A DNA stretch of 64,000 nucleotides from assembly GCF_045037415.1 (NCBI RefSeq), contig NZ_CP173438.1; one strand, 5' to 3'. The notes under the pieces are model-generated. The model was given only the letters and a program-made list of their open reading frames with translations, was not told the DNA's origin and did not search any database. This document shows, one piece after another, positions 51,806 through 63,710 of the stretch (positions are counted from its first letter, which is position 1; each line of letters opens with the position of its first letter). Position numbers and translations under genes: made by a program. The stretch is from Escherichia coli (GTDB lineage Bacteria > Pseudomonadota > Gammaproteobacteria > Enterobacterales > Enterobacteriaceae).

Positions 51806-53701
<1,896 letters not shown>

Positions 53702-53729
53702 TAATCCTCCCGCCAGAAGAATAAAACAT

Positions 53730-53762
53730 AGCCCGGTATACAAGTGTATACCGGGCTTTTTT
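53730..53762 (+). terminator. parE intrinsic terminator
   Basis: AGCCCGGTATAC-AAGT-GTATACCGGGCT followed by TTTTT; ends 2 nt before the stop of the receptor gene on the other strand. Confidence 0.85.
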
Positions 53763-53764
53763 GA

Positions 53765-55906
53765 TCAAAATTCCATTTTCACCGTGAATTGCACTTCACG
53801 CGGATCGCCAATCTGATTCCCCAGATTATTTGTGGCGATGGAAGAGGTGTAATACGTTTTATCAAACAGGTTTTTGACGTTTAATTGCAGTGTGACCGGA
53901 TACTGCAATTTCATTTTGTATGCGGCGAAGGCATCGGCAACAAAATAGCCTGGCAGATAATAGTCAGCCCCATTGGTTGCCGAACGACGGCTTACACCAT
54001 GTCCACCACCGCCAAATGTCAGCGTATTATTGCCTGGCATGTTATGAATATCATAGGTCAGGAATAGCGAACCGGTATGACGAGGAACATTCGGCAATGG
54101 TTTCCCTGCATAATCAGGATCCTCCAGAACCTTAGCATCGGTATAGCCGTAGCTGGCAATGATATTAATGTTTTCAGTTAATGCTCCCGCAAGGTCGACT
54201 TCTACCCCTCTTGAACGAACACGGCCTGCCGTTTTGGCGATGGTTTCATCACCAATACTTTCGGTATACAACACATTACGTTTATGGATATCAAACAGCG
54301 CAATATCTGCGGTGATACCATCGAATAGCTCGAATTTTGCCCCGACTTCGTAAGCATTAGATGATTCCGGTGGAAGATCGCCAATGTAGCTGGCAATTGA
54401 CGACTGCGGCATAAATGTTTGCGAATAATTGGCAAATAAGGATACCGATGGCGTCAGTTTGTAGACCAACCCCAGTTTGGGAGTCCATTGTTCATCGCGG
54501 CTGTCAGTATTGACATTAAAAGGACGGCCTTTACCCGCATACTGCGTGTAATACTGATAGCGGATCCCGGCGACGGCAATCCAGTTATCGGTCAGATAGA
54601 GTGCGTCCTGTGCATACGCTGAGTAGCTCTCCTGTTTGATCGTCTGATCACTGTCCGACGCCGAAACCGTTGTACATTTGCTGGTATTACCATAAACAGG
54701 GTTGTAAATATTGAAATCTTTAGCTTTTTTACAGCGAATCATATCTGTACGCAGAAGATCATAATATTCATATGACACCCCACCCAGAATCTCATTATAG
54801 AATCCGGCAATATCAACATTCCCTTGCAGATCCGCACGAGTAGCATGCATACGCTGGGTAGAGCCCTGAGTTGCATCAACACGCCGTGTCAGTGTTCCTG
54901 TCGTTGCATCATATGCGGTAACACGCGCCTGATTATCGCTGTATTTATCCTGGCTGTAGCTGTAATCAAAGCGTGCTGTCCACTGGCTATTGAGATGATA
55001 TTCTGCGTTGAGTTGCGCCAGATCGGACTGACCATCTGTAATATTAAACGGTTCGTCAAAACGTATTTTTCGATCAACGTTTACGGGCTGTTTCGTCGTA
55101 AGGTCGAAAATCGTTCCACGATCGAACGGAGTTTTATAGTCCCGATGGGAATAGAGCATGGTTACTGTTGCATTATCACCAAACCATGTGAGTGACGGGG
55201 CAATAAATGTACTGCGCTCTTTACCGAAGTTTCGCCAGTAATCTTCATCCTGCACTTCCCCGGTAAGGCGATACGCCAGCTGAGTGCCTTCAATGGGACC
55301 TGTGATATCAAGTTGCCCAGTGCCGCCACCAAAACTGGAGGAGGTGGCTGAAACCGAACCATGGAATGTTTTTTCCGGGCGCTTGGTCACGACGTTAATC
55401 AGTCCGCCAGGATCGAGAATGCCATACAGCGTGGAGGCCGGGCCTTTTAGCACTTCCACACGTTCTGTGGCGGCGTTGAAACTGCGAGGAAGTACGGTTC
55501 GCAGACCGTTGGTCATGATGGAGCCATCCCGGTTTGCGCCAAACCCACGGCGTACAAAGGCGTCCTGAGTTCCGCCTAATGTATTGGTCTGTACCACGTT
55601 ACTGACGTTATAAAGCGCCTCATCCAGCGTTGTCGCATTCTGGTTTTCCAGAACCTGATCGCTAACCGTATTGACCACCTGCGGGATATCCAGCATCGGC
55701 ATATCGGTTAATGTCGCCGTAGAGGTGCTCAGAGGTTGATAACCATCGGTTGCCTCAGTTGCGGTATTTGCATCTGCTGTAACAGTGATTGTTTCGCCAT
55801 CTTTGGTCGTTACAGAGTCTGTTGCATGAATCATCGGTGCCGCAAAAAGCAGTGAAAAGAGCGCCCGACCTTTGAGTCCTGAGAATGAAGGTGTGAACAT
55901 AGCCAT
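53765..55906 (-). CDS. TonB-dependent outer-membrane siderophore receptor (FhuE/FhuA-like); resembles the receptor of the E. coli fit locus as I recall it
   Basis: 713-aa ORF with a signal peptide ending MIHA, TonB box ETITVTA, a plug domain, a beta-barrel and a terminal ...VKMEF aromatic residue. Confidence 0.88.
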   Translation of the reverse strand: MAMFTPSFSGLKGRALFSLLFAAPMIHATDSVTTKDGETITVTADANTATEATDGYQPLSTSTATLTDMPMLDIPQVVNTVSDQVLENQNATTLDEALYNVSNVVQTNTLGGTQDAFVRRGFGANRDGSIMTNGLRTVLPRSFNAATERVEVLKGPASTLYGILDPGGLINVVTKRPEKTFHGSVSATSSSFGGGTGQLDITGPIEGTQLAYRLTGEVQDEDYWRNFGKERSTFIAPSLTWFGDNATVTMLYSHRDYKTPFDRGTIFDLTTKQPVNVDRKIRFDEPFNITDGQSDLAQLNAEYHLNSQWTARFDYSYSQDKYSDNQARVTAYDATTGTLTRRVDATQGSTQRMHATRADLQGNVDIAGFYNEILGGVSYEYYDLLRTDMIRCKKAKDFNIYNPVYGNTSKCTTVSASDSDQTIKQESYSAYAQDALYLTDNWIAVAGIRYQYYTQYAGKGRPFNVNTDSRDEQWTPKLGLVYKLTPSVSLFANYSQTFMPQSSIASYIGDLPPESSNAYEVGAKFELFDGITADIALFDIHKRNVLYTESIGDETIAKTAGRVRSRGVEVDLAGALTENINIIASYGYTDAKVLEDPDYAGKPLPNVPRHTGSLFLTYDIHNMPGNNTLTFGGGGHGVSRRSATNGADYYLPGYFVADAFAAYKMKLQYPVTLQLNVKNLFDKTYYTSSIATNNLGNQIGDPREVQFTVKMEF

Positions 55907-56004
55907 TTAGTCTGTTATCCCAAAAACTCGCGGATTGTCGCGAGTGAAAATTGTTTCTTATTGCTCACTAAGCACTATCCGTTTGTTATTTCGCCATCGG
56001 ATAT

Positions 56005-56023
56005 GTAATTGAGAATCATTCAA
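56005..56023. promoter_or_regulatory. Candidate Fur box in the divergent receptor / ABC promoter region
   Basis: GTAATTGAGAATCATTCAA matches about 12 of 19 positions of GATAATGATAATCATTATC, in an AT-rich 373-bp spacer. Confidence 0.45.
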
Positions 56024-56279
56024 TCACGCAGTAATGTAGTAGTAAATGAGAAATAACAAAAAATTGCTACATGTGTTTTTATGAAAGGTTTATACAATTT
56101 GATTGCTTTTAATTTATTGATATTTAATGTTTTTATTTTTATGTATAAAAATATTTTACCTGTTATTTACCTTGTTTTTGTGTGGCTTTTAACTGCTTGA
56201 CTACTACATTTTGTGGCGTCAAACTCTCAAAGGAGAATGAGTTTTATTTTTGTTTGTCTTTGATTAAGTTGGCGTACAC

Positions 56280-57089
56280 GTGGCACATAACGCAAAAGGG
56301 CAGGGGCTGATCCTCGACAATGTTTCTGCCGGGTATCACAAGAAAATCATTGTTGATGGTGTTTCTTTCTCCGTTCCCACAGAAAAAATGACCGTTCTGG
56401 TTGGGGCAAACGGCTGTGGAAAGTCGACGTTGCTCAGCACCATTGCACGTATCTTGCAACCTATGGGCGGTTCGATATTGCTTGATGGCAAAGCGATTCA
56501 CGAGCAACCAACGAAAGCGTTATCCCGTAGACTTGGGATCTTGCCGCAGTCGCCATTATTGCCGGAGGGCTTAACCGTTTATGAACTGGTGTCGCGTGGG
56601 CGTTTTCCCTGGCAAAATTTCATACGTCAATGGAGCGACGCCGATGAGCAGGCGGTGGAAGAGGCCCTGAAATTAACCGGTACGCAGGAGTTTGCACATT
56701 TACCTGTTGAAAAACTCTCTGGTGGGCAGCGCCAGCGTTGCTGGATTGCGATGGTGTTGGCGCAAAAGACGCCTTATATCCTGCTGGATGAACCCACAAC
56801 CTGGCTTGATTTACGTTATCAGGTTGAAATTCTTGAGTTATTACATGATTTAACGCGTCATCACGGGCGTACAGTCGTCGTGGTGTTGCATGATCTGAAT
56901 TTTGCCGTCAATTATGGCGATACGTTGATATTTTTACGCCAGGGGAAAGTGGTGCGTGTGTTGAATGAGGGGGAGCATTGCACGCCTGAACTGGTAAAAG
57001 CTGTCTTTGACGTTGATGTTCACGCATCAATAAATCCTCTGACGGGAAAGCCGTTCTTCATGCCGTTTCGTGGTGTAGAAAAAGTATGA
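56280..57089 (+). CDS. ABC transporter ATPase (FepC/FhuC-type iron-chelate importer)
   Basis: 269-aa ORF from a GTG; Walker A GANGCGKST, signature LSGGQRQR, Walker B ILLDEPT. The start codon is uncertain (no clear SD). Confidence 0.88.
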   Translation: MAHNAKGQGLILDNVSAGYHKKIIVDGVSFSVPTEKMTVLVGANGCGKSTLLSTIARILQPMGGSILLDGKAIHEQPTKALSRRLGILPQSPLLPEGLTVYELVSRGRFPWQNFIRQWSDADEQAVEEALKLTGTQEFAHLPVEKLSGGQRQRCWIAMVLAQKTPYILLDEPTTWLDLRYQVEILELLHDLTRHHGRTVVVVLHDLNFAVNYGDTLIFLRQGKVVRVLNEGEHCTPELVKAVFDVDVHASINPLTGKPFFMPFRGVEKV

Positions 57090-58069
57090 TGCGCACAGGG
57101 CTGGTTACTGTAATTTTCCTCGCCTTACTGCTGGTGGGATGCGTGGTATATCCAGGGATTGGTGCCCGATTTATTGCACCACAAACGGTGTTGCAGGCAT
57201 TTCTTCATTTTGATCCGCAAAACTTCGATCACAACGTAATTGTAAGACTCCGTTTGCCGCGTTTAGCGGCAGCATTGCTTACCGGTGCTTCTCTTGGTGT
57301 TGCTGGTGCTTTGTTGCAGGCTGTCATTCGTAACCCATTGGGGGAACCACATATTTTAGGCTTAAATGCCGGAGCCGCTCTTGCTGTCGTTGCCGCCAGT
57401 GCGCTTGGACTGGCCTTTCCGGTTGGACGCCCACTGCTGGCATCTACGGGGGGCGCGTTATTGTTCCTGTTGATATTGCTGCTTTCCTCCGCAGGGCGTT
57501 CAGGGTTAACGCCAATGAAAGTTACTTTATGCGGCGTGGCGCTATCGGCGTTCGTGTCCTCAATAACGGCTGCAATCCTGATTCTTGACGAACAAACACT
57601 GCTGGCGATGCGGACATGGCTAGCAGGTGATTTAGCGGGGCAGGATTGGGCGACGCTGGGTACGTCCGCCTGGTTTTCTCTGGGGGGATTTGTGTTAGCC
57701 CTTTACCTTGCACCCTCCCTTAACATGTTGGCACTGGGCGATCGCATGGCGCAGGGGCTGGGCGTCTCTGTACTCCGCACGCGAACATTCACCCTGCTTG
57801 CGATCGCGTTGCTCTGTGGCGCAGCCGTATCGATTGCTGGCCCCATTGGTTTTGTCGGCCTGCTAGTACCGCAGATTGTCCGGCGTCTGGTATCAGCGGA
57901 TCTGCGCGTTCTGCTCCCTCTTTCAGCTTGTGTCGGCGCGCTTTTGTTATTACTGGCAGATATTATTGCCCGGACGCTTTTCACGCCCCATGAGTTAGCG
58001 ACCGGTGTCATGACGGCGTTAGTTGGTGCGCCTGTTTTTGTCATTATGGCGACGAGGATGTTCAAATGA
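57086..58069 (+). CDS. FecCD-family ABC permease 1
   Basis: 327-aa polytopic ORF, ATGA-coupled to the ATPase gene. Confidence 0.88.
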   Translation: MMRTGLVTVIFLALLLVGCVVYPGIGARFIAPQTVLQAFLHFDPQNFDHNVIVRLRLPRLAAALLTGASLGVAGALLQAVIRNPLGEPHILGLNAGAALAVVAASALGLAFPVGRPLLASTGGALLFLLILLLSSAGRSGLTPMKVTLCGVALSAFVSSITAAILILDEQTLLAMRTWLAGDLAGQDWATLGTSAWFSLGGFVLALYLAPSLNMLALGDRMAQGLGVSVLRTRTFTLLAIALLCGAAVSIAGPIGFVGLLVPQIVRRLVSADLRVLLPLSACVGALLLLLADIIARTLFTPHELATGVMTALVGAPVFVIMATRMFK

Positions 58070-59115
58070 GTCGGATAATGAACGTCGGGCTACGCCCACT
58101 ACGTGTTGGTAAGTTTTCGACACTGGTGCGCCCTAAAAATCTGCTGTTGCTTGGTGGGCTGTTCCTGCTTGCGGTTGGAATACTGATATTCGGTCTGATG
58201 CAGGGTTCTTTCTCTGTTCCGGCATCGGAAGTAGGACGAGCGTTGTTTGCTCCAGAAAACGTAAGCACAGACGCACGTTATATTGTGCAGGATATTCGCT
58301 TGCCGAGAGTCATCATGGCATTGCTATGCGGGGCCATGTTAGGTATGGCAGGGGCCGCAATGCAATCCATTGCACGTAACGGCCTTGCCGATCCTGGTTT
58401 AATCGGCGTCAAAGAAGGATGTAGCGTGGCTGTGCTGTGGCTGATTTTCCAGTTTCCAATGCTGGGAATGTTCTGGCGTCCAGTGGCTGGTCTTGCTGGT
58501 GGCCTGTTGGTGGCTTTAATCGTGATTTTTTGTGCGCGCGATATTTCCCGCCCGCGATTTGTTCTGATTGGTATTGGTGTTTCCTGGTTTTTCGCCGCCG
58601 GTATCGGTGTATTTATGACCACTGCAGATGTTCGAGATGTACAAACTGCATTGATGTGGTTATCGGGAAGCCTGCATGCAGCTAACTGGATGTTAGTCGG
58701 TATTTCAGCCTGTTGGATGTTGCCAGCCGCTCTTTTATTGCTGTTCACCGCCAGGACTGCGGATATCGCTCTGCTTGGTCATCAGGTTGCAACCGGGTTA
58801 GGGGTGAATAGTTCTCGTCTGGCGTTGTTACGTGTCGCCGCACCCATAATCCTGACAGCCGTCTGCGTTTCGTGTGTTGGTAACATCGGTTTTGTCGGAT
58901 TGATAGCACCCCATATATCACGTTTTATTCTACGTGGCGGGCAGACGACATTACTGCTGGGGAGCGCGGTATCGGGGGCGTTGTTAGTTATTCTGGCGGA
59001 TAGCATTGGTCGTTTGGCTTTTTTGCCTTTGCAACTGCCTGCCGGAATCATTATCTCACTGATTGGTGGACCATTTTTTTTACTACTGCTCTGGCAGCGC
59101 AGGAACAGTTTTTAA
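58066..59115 (+). CDS. FecCD-family ABC permease 2
   Basis: 349-aa polytopic ORF, ATGA-coupled to permease 1. Confidence 0.88.
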   Translation: MSRIMNVGLRPLRVGKFSTLVRPKNLLLLGGLFLLAVGILIFGLMQGSFSVPASEVGRALFAPENVSTDARYIVQDIRLPRVIMALLCGAMLGMAGAAMQSIARNGLADPGLIGVKEGCSVAVLWLIFQFPMLGMFWRPVAGLAGGLLVALIVIFCARDISRPRFVLIGIGVSWFFAAGIGVFMTTADVRDVQTALMWLSGSLHAANWMLVGISACWMLPAALLLLFTARTADIALLGHQVATGLGVNSSRLALLRVAAPIILTAVCVSCVGNIGFVGLIAPHISRFILRGGQTTLLLGSAVSGALLVILADSIGRLAFLPLQLPAGIIISLIGGPFFLLLLWQRRNSF

Positions 59116-59125
59116 CGGGAGTTAT

Positions 59126-60073
59126 ATGCGTTTATTTTTTTCTCTGCTGATACTGTTGTCATTTTTTTCCCGTGCAACAGAACCTGTTCAGGTATTTACT
59201 GATGATTTAGGGCGCAAAGTCACTGTTCCTGCTCATCCAAAGAGAATTGTCTCTTTACACGATCTTGATATCACTATTCCTCTGATTGAGCTCGGTGTAC
59301 CTCCTGTCGCCAGCCACGGGCGAACTCGGCCTGACGGTAGCCATTTCATTCGATCTGGCGCGTTATTGACAGGTGTCGACTTTGATAATTCATCGATCGC
59401 CTTTATTGGTACCGCTGATATTGATATTGAAGCGATTGTGGCGGCAAAGCCTGACTTGATCATCACAGAACCGACCCGTAATACGCCCATTGAACAACTT
59501 GAAAAAATTGCGCCCACGGTGAGCATTGATCATCTCAAAGGGGGCGCGCCAGAAATCTATCGCAAGCTGGCAGAACTTACAGGAACGCAGTCGCAGCTGG
59601 CGATACTTGAACGCCGCTATCAGGCACAAATCAATGCGCTGAAGGCGACGCTGGACAGCCAAAAAATAACGGTATCGGTGATTCAGGCAAACCAGGGAAA
59701 AATTAATGTGATGCATAGCTATCATTCGCTGGGACGGGTATTACGCGATGCTGGTTTTCGTTTTCCGCCGCTGATTGAGAGCATTCCTGAAGGTGGGCGA
59801 ATGGATGTGAGCGCGGAGCGTTTACCTGAACTGGATGCCGATTTTGTTTTTGCAACCTGGCGCGGTGACACCGGTGGTAAACCTCAGGATGAGCTGGCAG
59901 CAATGGAAAAAGTCATGCCGGGATGGTGTCAGTTTCTGACTGCCTGTCGTTCCGGGCGTTATGTGCTGATTTCTCGTGAAGAGGCAATTTCTAACTCCTT
60001 TGCATCTCTGGGGCTGATGGCTGCGCAGATACAATCACAAATTGCAGGGCGACCTCTACCGGAGGCTAAATGA
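59126..60073 (+). CDS. Periplasmic substrate-binding protein (iron-siderophore/cobalamin PBP family)
   Basis: The track ORF starts at 59063. ATG 59126 (SD ACGGGAG) gives signal peptide MRLFFSLLILLSFFSRA followed by a binding-protein-like mature part. Confidence 0.82.
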   Translation: MRLFFSLLILLSFFSRATEPVQVFTDDLGRKVTVPAHPKRIVSLHDLDITIPLIELGVPPVASHGRTRPDGSHFIRSGALLTGVDFDNSSIAFIGTADIDIEAIVAAKPDLIITEPTRNTPIEQLEKIAPTVSIDHLKGGAPEIYRKLAELTGTQSQLAILERRYQAQINALKATLDSQKITVSVIQANQGKINVMHSYHSLGRVLRDAGFRFPPLIESIPEGGRMDVSAERLPELDADFVFATWRGDTGGKPQDELAAMEKVMPGWCQFLTACRSGRYVLISREEAISNSFASLGLMAAQIQSQIAGRPLPEAK

Positions 60074-60957
60074 TCCAGAAAGATAAAGTGCGGGTTGATA
60101 TTTTTGGTGAGCGTTTTCGCACTCGCGCGAGTCAGTTAACGCCTGGGTTAAGAGTTGTCGCCAGCTACATTAATGAGCATCGTGAAGTGGTACTCGAGCA
60201 AACGGCGATGGAAATTGCGGCCACGTTGAACACTTCCGATGCCACAGTTATCAGGGCTATACAGGCCCTGGGGTTTGCCGGGCTGCGTGATCTGAAACGC
60301 ACTCTGGAACAGTGGCTTGGTCCAGCCCTTAGTTCCAGCGAAAAGATGTCTACGACGGTGAGTAACTTGACGAGCGATGTTAACACCGCAATCGACTTTG
60401 TTCTTGAAGGGCATTTGTATACCTGTAATGTCCTGTCAGAGCCTGAAAACCGCCACGCGCTTGCGCAAGCTGTAGCGTTGTTGGTGCAGGCACGGCAAGT
60501 CGCAATTTTTGGCATTGGCGCTTCGGGTATTCTGGCGGACTATACCGCACGACTATTCAACCGCATAGGTTTGCCTGCCACGGCACTAAACCGTACGGGT
60601 ATTGGCCTTGCCGAGCAACTGATCGCGCTTCAACGTGGCGATGTTCTGATCATGATGGCGCAAAAATCTGCGCACCGGGAAGGGCTGACAACGCTTCGTG
60701 AGGCGAGGCGGCTGGGGATCCCTGTTATTTTGCTGACAAACGCGCTGGATTCACGTTTTAGCAAAGACGCCAGTATCGTGATTCATGTTCCGCGCGGGGA
60801 TGAAAAAGGGAAAACGCCGCTACATGGTACGGTATTGTTGTGTCTGGAAATGATTGTCTGGTCGGTAGCTTCCGCAGTGCCGCAGCGTGCGGTTAAAACC
60901 ATTAAGCGAATTAACGATTTCCATCGAGGACTGAAAACGGGAAGAAAGAATGGCTAA
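60070..60957 (+). CDS. RpiR-family transcriptional regulator (HTH_6 + SIS sugar-phosphate-binding domain)
   Basis: 295-aa ORF; HTH region ...MEIAATLNTSDATVIRAIQALGFAGLRDLK..., SIS-like ...VAIFGIGASG...; start overlaps the binding-protein stop. Confidence 0.8.
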   Translation: MIQKDKVRVDIFGERFRTRASQLTPGLRVVASYINEHREVVLEQTAMEIAATLNTSDATVIRAIQALGFAGLRDLKRTLEQWLGPALSSSEKMSTTVSNLTSDVNTAIDFVLEGHLYTCNVLSEPENRHALAQAVALLVQARQVAIFGIGASGILADYTARLFNRIGLPATALNRTGIGLAEQLIALQRGDVLIMMAQKSAHREGLTTLREARRLGIPVILLTNALDSRFSKDASIVIHVPRGDEKGKTPLHGTVLLCLEMIVWSVASAVPQRAVKTIKRINDFHRGLKTGRKNG

Positions 60958-60965
60958 TCTGGGCT

Positions 60966-60994
60966 GAGACCGGTAGCAGCACCGGCCTCTTTTT
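60966..60994 (+). terminator. Terminator closing the ABC/RpiR operon
   Basis: GAGACCGGT-AGCAGC-ACCGGCCTC (one mismatch) followed by TTTTT, 8 nt before the ygiN stop on the other strand. Confidence 0.65.
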
Positions 60995-61001
60995 AGAAAT
61001 G

Positions 61002-61316
61002 TCAAAGCCCCGGCTGCAGGATACGAATATTCATCTCCAGCACGTCACCTTTTACGGCTTCGCTATATGCTTTCATGTGCGGGGTTTGCAGATGCGCTTC
61101 AAGATGCGCGATGCTTTCCCACTGCTCAATCATCACGATAGAATCCGGTGCCATAGACTGGAAACTCACGCCAGCAGCGCAATCCACCATTGGCGCATAG
61201 CCGTGGCAACCTTCTTCTTTCAGTACGGTTGGAACGATTTTAGCAAACTGATCCAACACTGCCTGACGGTGATGTTGACCAGGACGAGTACGAATTTCTG
61301 CGATTACTGTAATCAT
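61002..61316 (-). CDS. ygiN: Quinol monooxygenase (ABM domain)
   Basis: 104-aa ORF MITVIAEIRTRPGQHHRQAVLDQFAKIVPTVLKEEGCHGYAPMVD... Confidence 0.93.
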   Translation of the reverse strand: MITVIAEIRTRPGQHHRQAVLDQFAKIVPTVLKEEGCHGYAPMVDCAAGVSFQSMAPDSIVMIEQWESIAHLEAHLQTPHMKAYSEAVKGDVLEMNIRILQPGL

Positions 61317-61928: not shown

Positions 61929-62178
61929 TTTTTTAACCTCAAGGTGAGACGTTTGCCGACTATAGTACGTCACAGAGCGGTACGGTGAAATTAGCAAAAT
62001 GTGCAAAGTCTTTTGCGAATTTAGCAAAAGTCTGATCTTTCTCTGATTCACCGATGCGGGATAAATATTTTCTGAAAATGACAATACTTAAATCAACTTC
62101 CCATAAGCTCCCACAGGAGAGATGTATTATGCAAATGATACAGGAGTTTTTCGGAAAAAATGATTATGGAGAATATAT

Positions 62179-62658
62179 ATGTCAAATATGATATACTTAT
62201 CAATTAAAGGGAAAATACAAGGTTTGATCTCTGAGGGTTGTGGTTCGTATGCATCTATTGGTAATAAATATCAAATAAATCATGTGGATGAAATTTTTGT
62301 TTTACAGTTCGACCATTCTTTAAGTCGAGAGTATAATGTAGTGCATCACCCCATAAAATTTTACAAGCCAATAGATAAATCCTCCCCTTTATTAAATGCC
62401 GCTCTTTCTGAAAATGAAGAGTTATCAGCTGTATTTAATTTTTATAGAATTAATTCTGGCGGTTGTATTGAAAGGTTTTACACAATTGAATTGCAAGGAG
62501 CACATTTATCGAATATTCTGACATGTTATCCACACTCAATTACACATGCGGGTAATCAGCCGGAAGAGGTCATTGTTCTTAATTATAAAAATATAACATG
62601 GAAGCACCATATCGCGAGTACGGAATCATATAGTTGTTGGGAAGAAAGGATTTTTTAA
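62179..62658 (+). CDS. hcp: Hcp/TssD-family type VI secretion tube protein, orphan copy
   Basis: 159-aa ORF. Whole-length pattern match to Hcp: IYLSIKG..QG.I...S.....DEI.VL.FDH....H.PI.F.K.IDKSSPLL..A....E.L.A.F.FYR.N..G....FYTI.L.GA.LS.I....EEV.L.Y..ITW.H......SCWEER. SD GGAGA upstream. Confidence 0.85.
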   Translation: MSNMIYLSIKGKIQGLISEGCGSYASIGNKYQINHVDEIFVLQFDHSLSREYNVVHHPIKFYKPIDKSSPLLNAALSENEELSAVFNFYRINSGGCIERFYTIELQGAHLSNILTCYPHSITHAGNQPEEVIVLNYKNITWKHHIASTESYSCWEERIF

Positions 62659-62660
62659 AT

Positions 62661-63371
62661 ATGAAAAGCGATCTCACTATAAAAAATAGATATTGTACAA
62701 TTCCACAAGCGAAGTTCCGTAAATGGGATGAAATGGACGTTTTACTCTGGAAGTTAGGAAAAAATGATTCGCGTCGCCGTTCAGGAGTATATTATTTAAA
62801 TGCTTATAAAGATGCATATGTACAATATAATAGAGACAAAATAATTAAATATGCATACGCCGCTGGAATTCGTCCAGAGTTACTGGGCGGCGTGGCCTGG
62901 ATTGAGTCAGGAGGTATGCCTGAAAATTATAAGTTTCAGATATATGAAACAAAAAGAATGATCGGATTGTTAGATATGCCTGAAAATAAAACATCATTTG
63001 GCTCAATGGGTATACAAATACGAACCGCAGCGATTACTCTAGGTCTAGACCCTTCAGAATTAACTACCAGAAATCAGTTAGAGTTAGCGACATGCCTAAT
63101 GGAGGATGATTTTACCTTTCAAATTGCTGCTACTTATTTAAGAGATCTTGTTCTTTTTGATTATCCCTCTTCGGCAACACTGTATATGACGAATGAGCAG
63201 TATATTATGGCTGGTATTAGATATAATCGTGGTGTTGAACGAGATTTGGGTTTTTTTATTTGTTTAATTAATAATTTGCCTGCACGTGATACAGATGATT
63301 ATAAATTCATCTCTTATGGTATGAGGTTGTTAGAGATTAGAGAACATATCAAAAAATTGATTAATGAGTAA
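62661..63371 (+). CDS. Hypothetical 236-aa protein with SLT/lysozyme-like motifs; candidate Hcp-borne peptidoglycan-targeting effector
   Basis: The track starts at TTG 62634. ATG 62661 lies 2 nt after the hcp stop, with AAAGGA upstream. No signal peptide. Motifs: VAWIESGG (E82, codon 62904-62906), FGSMGIQI (63000-63017), IRYNRG (63219-63233). Confidence 0.5.
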   Translation: MKSDLTIKNRYCTIPQAKFRKWDEMDVLLWKLGKNDSRRRSGVYYLNAYKDAYVQYNRDKIIKYAYAAGIRPELLGGVAWIESGGMPENYKFQIYETKRMIGLLDMPENKTSFGSMGIQIRTAAITLGLDPSELTTRNQLELATCLMEDDFTFQIAATYLRDLVLFDYPSSATLYMTNEQYIMAGIRYNRGVERDLGFFICLINNLPARDTDDYKFISYGMRLLEIREHIKKLINE

Positions 63372-63377
63372 TCAGAT

Positions 63378-63710
63378 ATGTTAAAAAAACAACTACTATC
63401 AATATTTGAAGCACTATTATATATAATGCTTACTTATTGGTTAATAGATTCTTTTTTTGCTTTCAATAAGTATGACTGGATGCTTGAGTCGGGAGACAAT
63501 ATTTGCAGTATACCTTCTGTTTCAGGCGAAGATCGTATATTACAAGCAATGATTGCAGCATTTTTTCTTCTGACACCACTTATTATTCTTATCTTAAGAA
63601 AACTCTTTATGCGGGAAATGTTCGAGTTTTGGCTATATGTATTCTCGCTCGTTATTTGTCTGGGTTGTGGTTGGTGGCTTTTTTGGGGACGGTTTATATT
63701 TTGCTATTAG
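63378..63710 (+). CDS. ygiZ: 110-aa three-TM inner membrane protein YgiZ; candidate immunity protein
   Basis: ATG lies 6 nt after the preceding stop. Hydrophobic helices LSIFEALLYIMLTYWLIDSFFAF, ILQAMIAAFFLLTPLIILIL, FEFWLYVFSLVICLGCGWWLFW. Position next to qseC matches remembered K-12 ygiZ. Confidence 0.75.
   Translation: MLKKQLLSIFEALLYIMLTYWLIDSFFAFNKYDWMLESGDNICSIPSVSGEDRILQAMIAAFFLLTPLIILILRKLFMREMFEFWLYVFSLVICLGCGWWLFWGRFIFCY

Follow-up and report, generated by a model that had tools for sequence, protein, structure and literature searches.

What is the function of a 236-residue protein that RefSeq lists as hypothetical, and why does its gene sit between an orphan hcp and ygiZ? The locus that raises this question lies close to the end of a 64,000-nucleotide stretch of Escherichia coli DNA (contig NZ_CP173438.1), which we refer to as the window and whose positions serve as coordinates throughout. 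A prediction made earlier from this DNA (the original prediction) had read the protein as a family 1, SLT-type lytic transglycosylase handed over by a secretion machine. Our computational analysis suggests that its gene, which we call the effector gene, is probably the middle member of a three-gene, horizontally mobile type VI secretion system (T6SS) effector module, hcp-effector-ygiZ. Besides the predicted fold and the aligned catalytic motifs, three patterns carry this conclusion: the domain of the protein is fused to toxin-delivery modules in its relatives, the three genes are linked across genera, and hcp and the effector gene are present or absent together in E. coli. The genes of the module are these:

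62179..62658, plus strand: hcp (tssD), orphan, first gene of the cassette, encoding the presumed effector carrier of 159 amino acids (aa) (Pfam T6SS_HCP, 3.5e-20; TIGR03344, 5.5e-59, 198.8 bits)

62661..63371, plus strand: effector gene, a stop-free open reading frame (ORF) of 236 aa (27.5 kDa, isoelectric point 8.3; RefSeq WP_000834026.1, "hypothetical protein")

63378..63710, plus strand: ygiZ, encoding a DUF2645 protein of 110 aa (Pfam DUF2645, 6.3e-11), predicted to be an inner-membrane protein of three helices and to act as the cognate immunity protein

All three ORFs are annotated likewise in RefSeq, and they form a tightly packed plus-strand trio between mdaB and qseC, both of which lie on the minus strand. 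Two nucleotides separate the stop codon of hcp from the ATG of the effector gene, and six separate the effector stop from the start of ygiZ. Across the trio the GC content is 30-37%, against about 50% in the flanks. This end of the window is E. coli chromosome, and many human isolates are 99.9% identical to it. Some database gene calls merge Hcp and effector in one ORF (P0002, 325 aa; P0004, 314 aa; P0031, 161 aa, "Hcp, partial"); with only 2 nucleotides between the two genes, a frameshift, whether real or an artefact, could yield fusions that resemble Hcp-ET proteins. The original prediction made no mention of the downstream partner ygiZ.

We examined which parts of the effector are conserved in a close set of 26 homologues and in a wide set of 106-115 diverse relatives at 23-42% identity. 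The features on which the enzymatic reading depends, all on the plus strand, are these:

62793..63260, plus strand: lysozyme-like (SLT-type) catalytic core, residues ~45-200, the part common to all distant relatives

62904..62909, plus strand: motif I, E82-S83 within VAWIESGGMPE, with E82 the predicted catalytic acid (from conservation and alignment to Slt70 and Tse3)

62991..63017, plus strand: motif II variant, T111-S112-F-G114-S-M-G-I-Q119, which stands in place of GLMQ and is two residues longer (from conservation and the Tse3 alignment)

63219..63233, plus strand: motif III, R187-Y188-N189-R190-G191, the equivalent of AYNxG (from conservation and hhalign against the AYNAG of Slt70)

The original prediction had placed E82-S83 at codons 62904-62909 and MAGIRYNRGV at residues 183-192, and both are where it put them; the peptide SFGSMGIQIRTA is likewise present, although it starts at residue 112 and not at 113. 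In all 26 close homologues E82, T111, S112, G114, S115, Q119 and G185-x-RYNRG191 are invariant. Across the wide set E82, G85, S112 and G191 remain invariant, with G114 kept in 99%, Q119 in 98%, Y188 and N189 in 94%, T111 in 93% and R187 in 92%, and E82 is the sole invariant acidic residue among 115 sequences. Ser83 is kept only within the close subfamily, Val being the consensus of the wider family. The close relatives number 34, all from Enterobacterales and every one named hypothetical, and an exhaustive hidden Markov model search of 1.84 billion proteins brings the family to 375 cluster representatives at E <= 1e-3. Conservation across both close and diverse relatives indicates that the three motifs are the selected core of a real family and not a chance pattern.

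The spacing between the motifs is longer than in Slt70 or MltE, as had been proposed: 37 residues separate the motif I glutamate from the motif II glutamine, compared with 18 in both of those enzymes and 30 in Tse3, and 69 residues separate that glutamine from the motif III tyrosine, compared with 56 in Slt70. The predicted absence of a signal peptide also holds, as Kyte-Doolittle means over 19 residues peak at 0.87, and the peak lies at residue 111, away from the N-terminus.

Does this core have the fold of an SLT domain? We took slt, emtA, mltC, mltD and mltF from K-12 and aligned their SLT domains by hhalign to the 115-sequence family alignment. The two matched with a probability of 93.6% (E 2.1e-7, 108 columns aligned against Slt70/MltC/MltD/MltE/MltF), and VAWIES was paired with IARQES, which sets E82-S83 on the catalytic E-S of Slt70 and E82 on its E478 (mature numbering; precursor residue 505). 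RYNRG was paired with AYNAG of Slt70, with Y188-N189-x-G191 in register. In addition, 16 of the 106 relatives match Pfam SLT (PF01464) at E <= 0.01, the best at E 8.2e-6, and one of them, P0148, scores 22.6 bits against a cut-off of 21.3. A sub-significant match to Tse3 (E ~0.06) places the E82 of the family on E250, the catalytic glutamate of Tse3 (PMC3792639), and its T-S-x-G on T274-S275-x-G277, in the motif II region of Tse3. From the 26-sequence alignment AlphaFold2 gives an all-helical model (predicted local distance difference test [pLDDT] score 73.9, predicted template modelling score 0.75), with what appears to be a lysozyme-like all-alpha fold and a substrate groove; the values listed with this model are MltE 10.2, MltC 9.6, Tse3 9.4, Slt70 9.4, MltF 9.2 and goose-type lysozyme 8.5.

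The SLT/lysozyme-like fold and active-site layout of the original prediction are thus supported by three independent computations, among them the profile alignment and the Pfam SLT matches of relatives. Its label "family 1" survives in part: the fold and motifs I and III stand, but the direct test gives no support for strict membership of family 1, as the effector itself gave no match in a Pfam SLT search even at E <= 10 and fails formal SLT membership by the PF01464 gathering score. Because that direct search came back empty, the description of the protein as a distant, unclassified branch was well chosen. As to chemistry, either a lytic transglycosylase or a hydrolase is possible. The single invariant carboxylate would favour the former, but among characterised proteins the nearest in sequence is Tse3, which is reported as a muramidase even though it too has a single Glu (PMC3792639).

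If the effector is such an enzyme, where would it act? In longer relatives the domain (profile positions ~40-200) forms the C-terminal part of the protein. Its N-terminal partners there are PAAR (3 proteins), RHS repeats (1), the extracellular contractile injection system (eCIS) core PF13699 (12), WXG100 (1) and Phage_Mu_F (1), and its peptidoglycan-binding partners are OmpA (5), PG_binding_1 (3) and PG_binding_3 (3). Fusion to both delivery and peptidoglycan-binding domains argues that this is a polymorphic toxin domain, one that would act on peptidoglycan. The domain is apparently common to T6SS, eCIS, MuF and type VII secretion-type delivery systems. Together with a conserved linkage to Hcp, the PAAR, Rhs and eCIS fusions lend support to the earlier proposal that the protein is delivered by a secretion machine.

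The linkage itself extends well beyond E. coli. Of the 17 related loci that we checked, 15 have a gene for a 159-aa Hcp immediately before the effector gene, and the trio occurs in Citrobacter, Pseudocitrobacter, Pectobacterium, Serratia, Chania and Buttiauxella with constant sizes (Hcp always 159 aa, effector 236-240 aa, DUF2645 108-112 aa) and differing flanks. In Pectobacterium the trio lies between pagP and an EamA gene, and in Chania it lies beside integrase and transposase genes. In Serratia it is carried by a 75.6-kb conjugative plasmid (CP072744.1; locus L005, 5507-7058), a few kb from traI/traX, and one E. coli plasmid copy of the module was also counted. Since the same trio stands in unrelated flanks, it is a horizontally mobile unit, and its presence on a conjugative plasmid means that it can move by conjugation.

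Identity to the proteins of the window is 54-76% for Hcp, 55-73% for the effector and 29-64% for DUF2645, and a DUF2645 gene follows the effector in every related locus of this trio set. DUF2645 therefore evolves fastest of the three, and immunity genes usually are the fastest-evolving members of such sets. The pairing is also found in more distant relatives. Downstream of a homologue fused to PAAR (P0038) lies a DUF2645 gene, the start of which overlaps the P0038 stop, so the effector-DUF2645 pairing outlives a swap of the delivery module from Hcp to PAAR. Two relatives at ~35% identity (P0043 and P0040) are followed by 97-98-aa proteins that match the DUF2645 profile, and a relative at 42% identity (P0035) has Hcp upstream and a 109-aa hydrophobic ORF downstream. 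The remote relatives P0075 and P0171 have no DUF2645-like neighbour. Linkage to hcp or PAAR is thus conserved across taxa, and a small adjacent gene co-varies with the effector, both of which are marks of a T6SS module.

Several copies of the cassette are damaged. The effector gene of Pectobacterium jejuense (L011, 4001-4702) is interrupted by an in-frame stop at the codon that corresponds to E73, and that of Pectobacterium sp. B2J-2 (L016) is frameshifted and has no Hcp. In Serratia sp. L9 (L019, 3984-4656) an N-terminal fragment of Hcp is fused to a C-terminal fragment of the effector and is followed by an intact DUF2645 gene. In E. coli strain 1449 (NZ_CP184069.1, 709726-712203) the orphan hcp is interrupted by IS1, so that it matches in two pieces, with tssD annotated twice around the IS1 transposase.

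We then considered whether YgiZ has the form and distribution of an immunity protein. Its model consists of three long helices (2-29, 50-77 and 81-109; pLDDT 69). By hydropathy and the positive-inside rule its N-terminus should be cytoplasmic, with an acidic loop (28-53) and the C-terminus facing the periplasm. This loop opens with N-K-Y-D/E-W-M-L-x-E, which is conserved better than any other stretch of the protein, distant partners included. Only the close set shares two cysteines, C43 in the predicted periplasmic loop and C109 at the C-terminus, likewise predicted to be periplasmic, and the distant partners L028 and L031 lack both; a C43-C109 disulfide would fit the predicted topology.

Among 5426 complete E. 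coli genomes the effector is found in 1261, always at >=95% identity, and the orphan hcp, which co-occurs with it, is found in 1263. In contrast, ygiZ is present in 4598 (85%). A blastn comparison of the K-12 locus with the window delimits the variable segment:

62089..63375, no strand: presence/absence segment relative to E. coli K-12, holding hcp and the effector gene

K-12 has ygiZ alone. There, 157 unrelated bp stand in for positions 62089-63375; the breakpoint falls shortly before the start of ygiZ, and the replacement has no recognisable remnant of hcp or the effector gene. Given that ygiZ occurs in 4598 of these genomes and the effector in 1261, the ygiZ of K-12 looks like an orphan immunity gene. 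Serratia sp. L9, with its intact DUF2645 gene beside a deleted hcp/effector remnant, repeats the K-12 pattern. Immunity genes that persist without their toxins are familiar from the orphan tsi genes of Vibrio cholerae and the acquired immunity islands of Bacteroidales. The ygiZ gene resembles these in being kept without the toxin, but it differs in being a single candidate protector at a fixed chromosomal site, between qseC and mdaB.

The K-12 protein (L007, 5880-6212) is 92% identical to the effector-linked allele. One of its substitutions, D40G, falls in an almost invariant G-D pair within the conserved periplasmic loop, a position at which several other aligned E. coli clusters keep D or E. 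This substitution could reflect a relaxed immunity function in the K-12 lineage. In K-12, ygiZ has its own promoter, activated by BglJ-RcsB (PMC3950696), and overexpression of the gene is harmless and raises sabinene tolerance (PMC7181518). The literature on K-12 ygiZ treats its product only as an inner-membrane protein of unknown function.

From these patterns we infer the following course of events. The effector, with its 27.5 kDa and no export signal, would be carried as cargo by the ring of its cognate Hcp, and a T6SS whose genes lie elsewhere in the genome would fire it into the periplasm of neighbouring Gram-negative cells. There its SLT-type domain would cut the glycan backbone of peptidoglycan, between N-acetylmuramic acid and N-acetylglucosamine (MurNAc-GlcNAc), with E82 as the single catalytic acid and with the T-S-x-G...Q hairpin and RYNRG lining the substrate groove. 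The prey cell would be left with a weakened wall and would lyse. Sister cells would be guarded by YgiZ, whose conserved periplasmic loop, we propose, would bind the effector and block it. K-12 and most other E. coli would have lost hcp and the effector gene or never had them, while keeping ygiZ as an orphan immunity gene.

A number of observations weigh against this account. At the level of sequence, the effector matches no family in Pfam or NCBIfam at E <= 10; against PDB sequences it returns only chance-level matches to light-harvesting proteins, and the close-family profile returns no match there. The profile of 106 relatives reaches Tse3 chains over 111 profile positions at a sub-significant E of 0.057-0.065, and hhalign leaves motif II unpaired with GLMQ because an insertion intervenes, the motif reading T-S-x-G-x-x-x-x-Q with a spacing two residues beyond that of canonical GLMQ. 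At the level of structure, confidence in the effector model is low at residues 1-40 and at residues 88-114, the latter lying between motifs I and II, and the Foldseek matches of the model are weak (E 0.04, TM-score 0.41-0.49). At the level of the system, there is no T6SS core cluster within the window, and our literature search found nothing that ties ygiZ, DUF2645 or the accessions of the locus to T6SS. In Buttiauxella gaviniae (L018, 4752-5041) DUF2645 is apparently frameshifted, in two frames, beside an intact effector gene. Finally, the immunity proteins characterised for T6SS peptidoglycan glycosidases, Tsi3 among them, are soluble and periplasmic and plug the groove (PMC3792639); beside these, a three-helix membrane protein with a loop of ~25 residues would be an unusual inhibitor for such an enzyme.

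This last point bears on the alternative that fares best. The same fold, delivered in the same way, could have its target at the outer face of the inner membrane, in lipid II, in nascent undecaprenyl-linked glycan strands or in another membrane-proximal glycan. A target at that face would account for a protector that is itself embedded in the membrane, and we regard this alternative as unlikely; like the three that follow, it is disfavoured by the evidence as a whole.

It is improbable that the effector is instead an inactive or decaying remnant, which has inherited its motifs and has no current function in E. coli. Decay is indeed visible in relatives, by a stop in L011, a frameshift in L016, a deletion in L019 and the IS1 in the hcp of strain 1449. 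However, 1260 complete E. coli genomes hold the ORF at >=80% query coverage and >=95% identity, and the catalytic-motif residues are all invariant across genera in proteins of 55-73% identity.

Another reading that we find very improbable is that the protein is not a toxin at all but a peptidoglycan-remodelling enzyme that opens the wall for a secretion apparatus, as VirB1, EtgA and the T6SS-recruited MltE do, with YgiZ as its anchor or regulator. Having neither signal peptide nor lipobox, the effector cannot reach the periplasm of its own cell by Sec, and its gene lies in an orphan hcp island and not in a T6SS core cluster. Moreover, the domain is fused in relatives to PAAR, Rhs, eCIS-core, MuF and WXG100 modules, and 3300-odd E. 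coli genomes without the enzyme still keep ygiZ. Least credible of all is a phage or tailocin lysis cassette, with the effector as an endolysin lacking a signal sequence and YgiZ as a holin of three transmembrane segments, given that no phage genes flank any locus, that Hcp is the constant partner, that YgiZ ends in RFIFCY with a predicted periplasmic C-terminus and lacks the charged cytoplasmic tail typical of holins, that T7-driven overexpression of ygiZ improves growth under stress and does not kill (PMC7181518), and that it is implausible for 85% of E. coli genomes to keep an orphan holin.

Within the preferred reading, a mobile T6SS effector module, there is a more specific proposal to which we give about even weight. 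It holds that DUF2645/YgiZ is a new class of T6SS immunity protein and that the ygiZ of K-12 is an orphan immunity gene. Either this three-helix inner-membrane protein would use a short, conserved periplasmic loop to neutralise a peptidoglycan glycosidase effector, or nascent glycan or lipid II at the membrane face would be the target of the effector.

How does the proposed module compare with systems that have already been described? The effector may be likened in its action to the T6SS peptidoglycan glycosidase group of Tse3/Tge1, the T6SS muramidase of Pseudomonas aeruginosa. Tse3, which has three Ca2+ sites, is 408 aa long with an N-terminal domain of ~180 aa, whereas the effector here has 236 aa. 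The partners differ too: Tsi3 is a soluble periplasmic beta-sandwich (PMC3792639), and the DUF2645 partner in this module is a membrane protein of three helices, not of the Tsi3 type. With the family 1 lytic transglycosylases the effector has in common a like fold and two of the three motifs (I and III), but it has G-S-x-x-x-Q for GLMQ and additional helices separating the motifs, it is extended by ~45 residues at the N-terminus and by ~35 at the C-terminus, and it lacks both a signal peptide and a lipobox; unlike the housekeeping enzymes of that family, it appears to be encoded as toxin cargo.

The closest organisational likeness is to the Hcp-dependent cargo effectors and Hcp-ET proteins of Enterobacteriaceae, which also combine a dedicated orphan hcp, an effector and a small immunity-type gene in a mobile region of low GC content. 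In contrast to Hcp-ET fusions, the effector here is a separate ORF, and neither the toxin domain nor the immunity family is among the Hcp-dependent or Hcp-ET systems that our literature search found. Two described orphan Hcp loci proved to be something else: the orphan operon of avian pathogenic E. coli known as "hcp2B" is another locus (hcp2B-vgrG2-xmtU/V), and the orphan Hcp of Shiga toxin-producing E. coli is of another type, an Hcp-HNH fusion. Because the effector fails the Pfam SLT test and has neither the architecture of Tse3 nor a Tsi3-type partner, we treat it and YgiZ as an unclassified family of effectors paired with a new, putative immunity family of membrane-embedded proteins.

If this reading is right, the module would represent a new family of T6SS cell-wall toxins, with its 375 cluster representatives served by no Pfam or NCBIfam model and called hypothetical in every named source. 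It would also give a concrete function to YgiZ/DUF2645, the product of a K-12 y-gene found in 85% of complete E. coli genomes, and a membrane-embedded antidote to a muralytic enzyme would be mechanistically unusual. Orphan ygiZ would then shield ~60% of E. coli from an hcp-effector module borne by ~23% of strains, a toxin/antidote polymorphism that would be likely to shape competition among gut E. coli strains. Carriers of the module include the Nissle-derived strain SYNB1934.

Three further observations concern the surroundings of the module. A DNA-similarity search for paralogous hcp genes did not find a second copy at >=65% DNA identity. In Chania multitudinisentens (L003, 10287-11314), ~3 kb past the cassette, a Pesticin-domain gene (204 aa) is followed by an LprI-like gene (138 aa), possibly a further toxin/immunity pair of lysozyme-like type within that mobile region. 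The window differs from K-12 by a second presence/absence segment at 53698-61003, in place of which K-12 has 53 bp between parE and ygiN. This 7.3-kb block holds an ABC ATPase, two FecCD permeases, an iron-siderophore binding protein, a MurR/RpiR regulator and a minus-strand ORF of 713 aa (53765-55906), which carries no annotation here and possibly encodes a TonB-dependent receptor.

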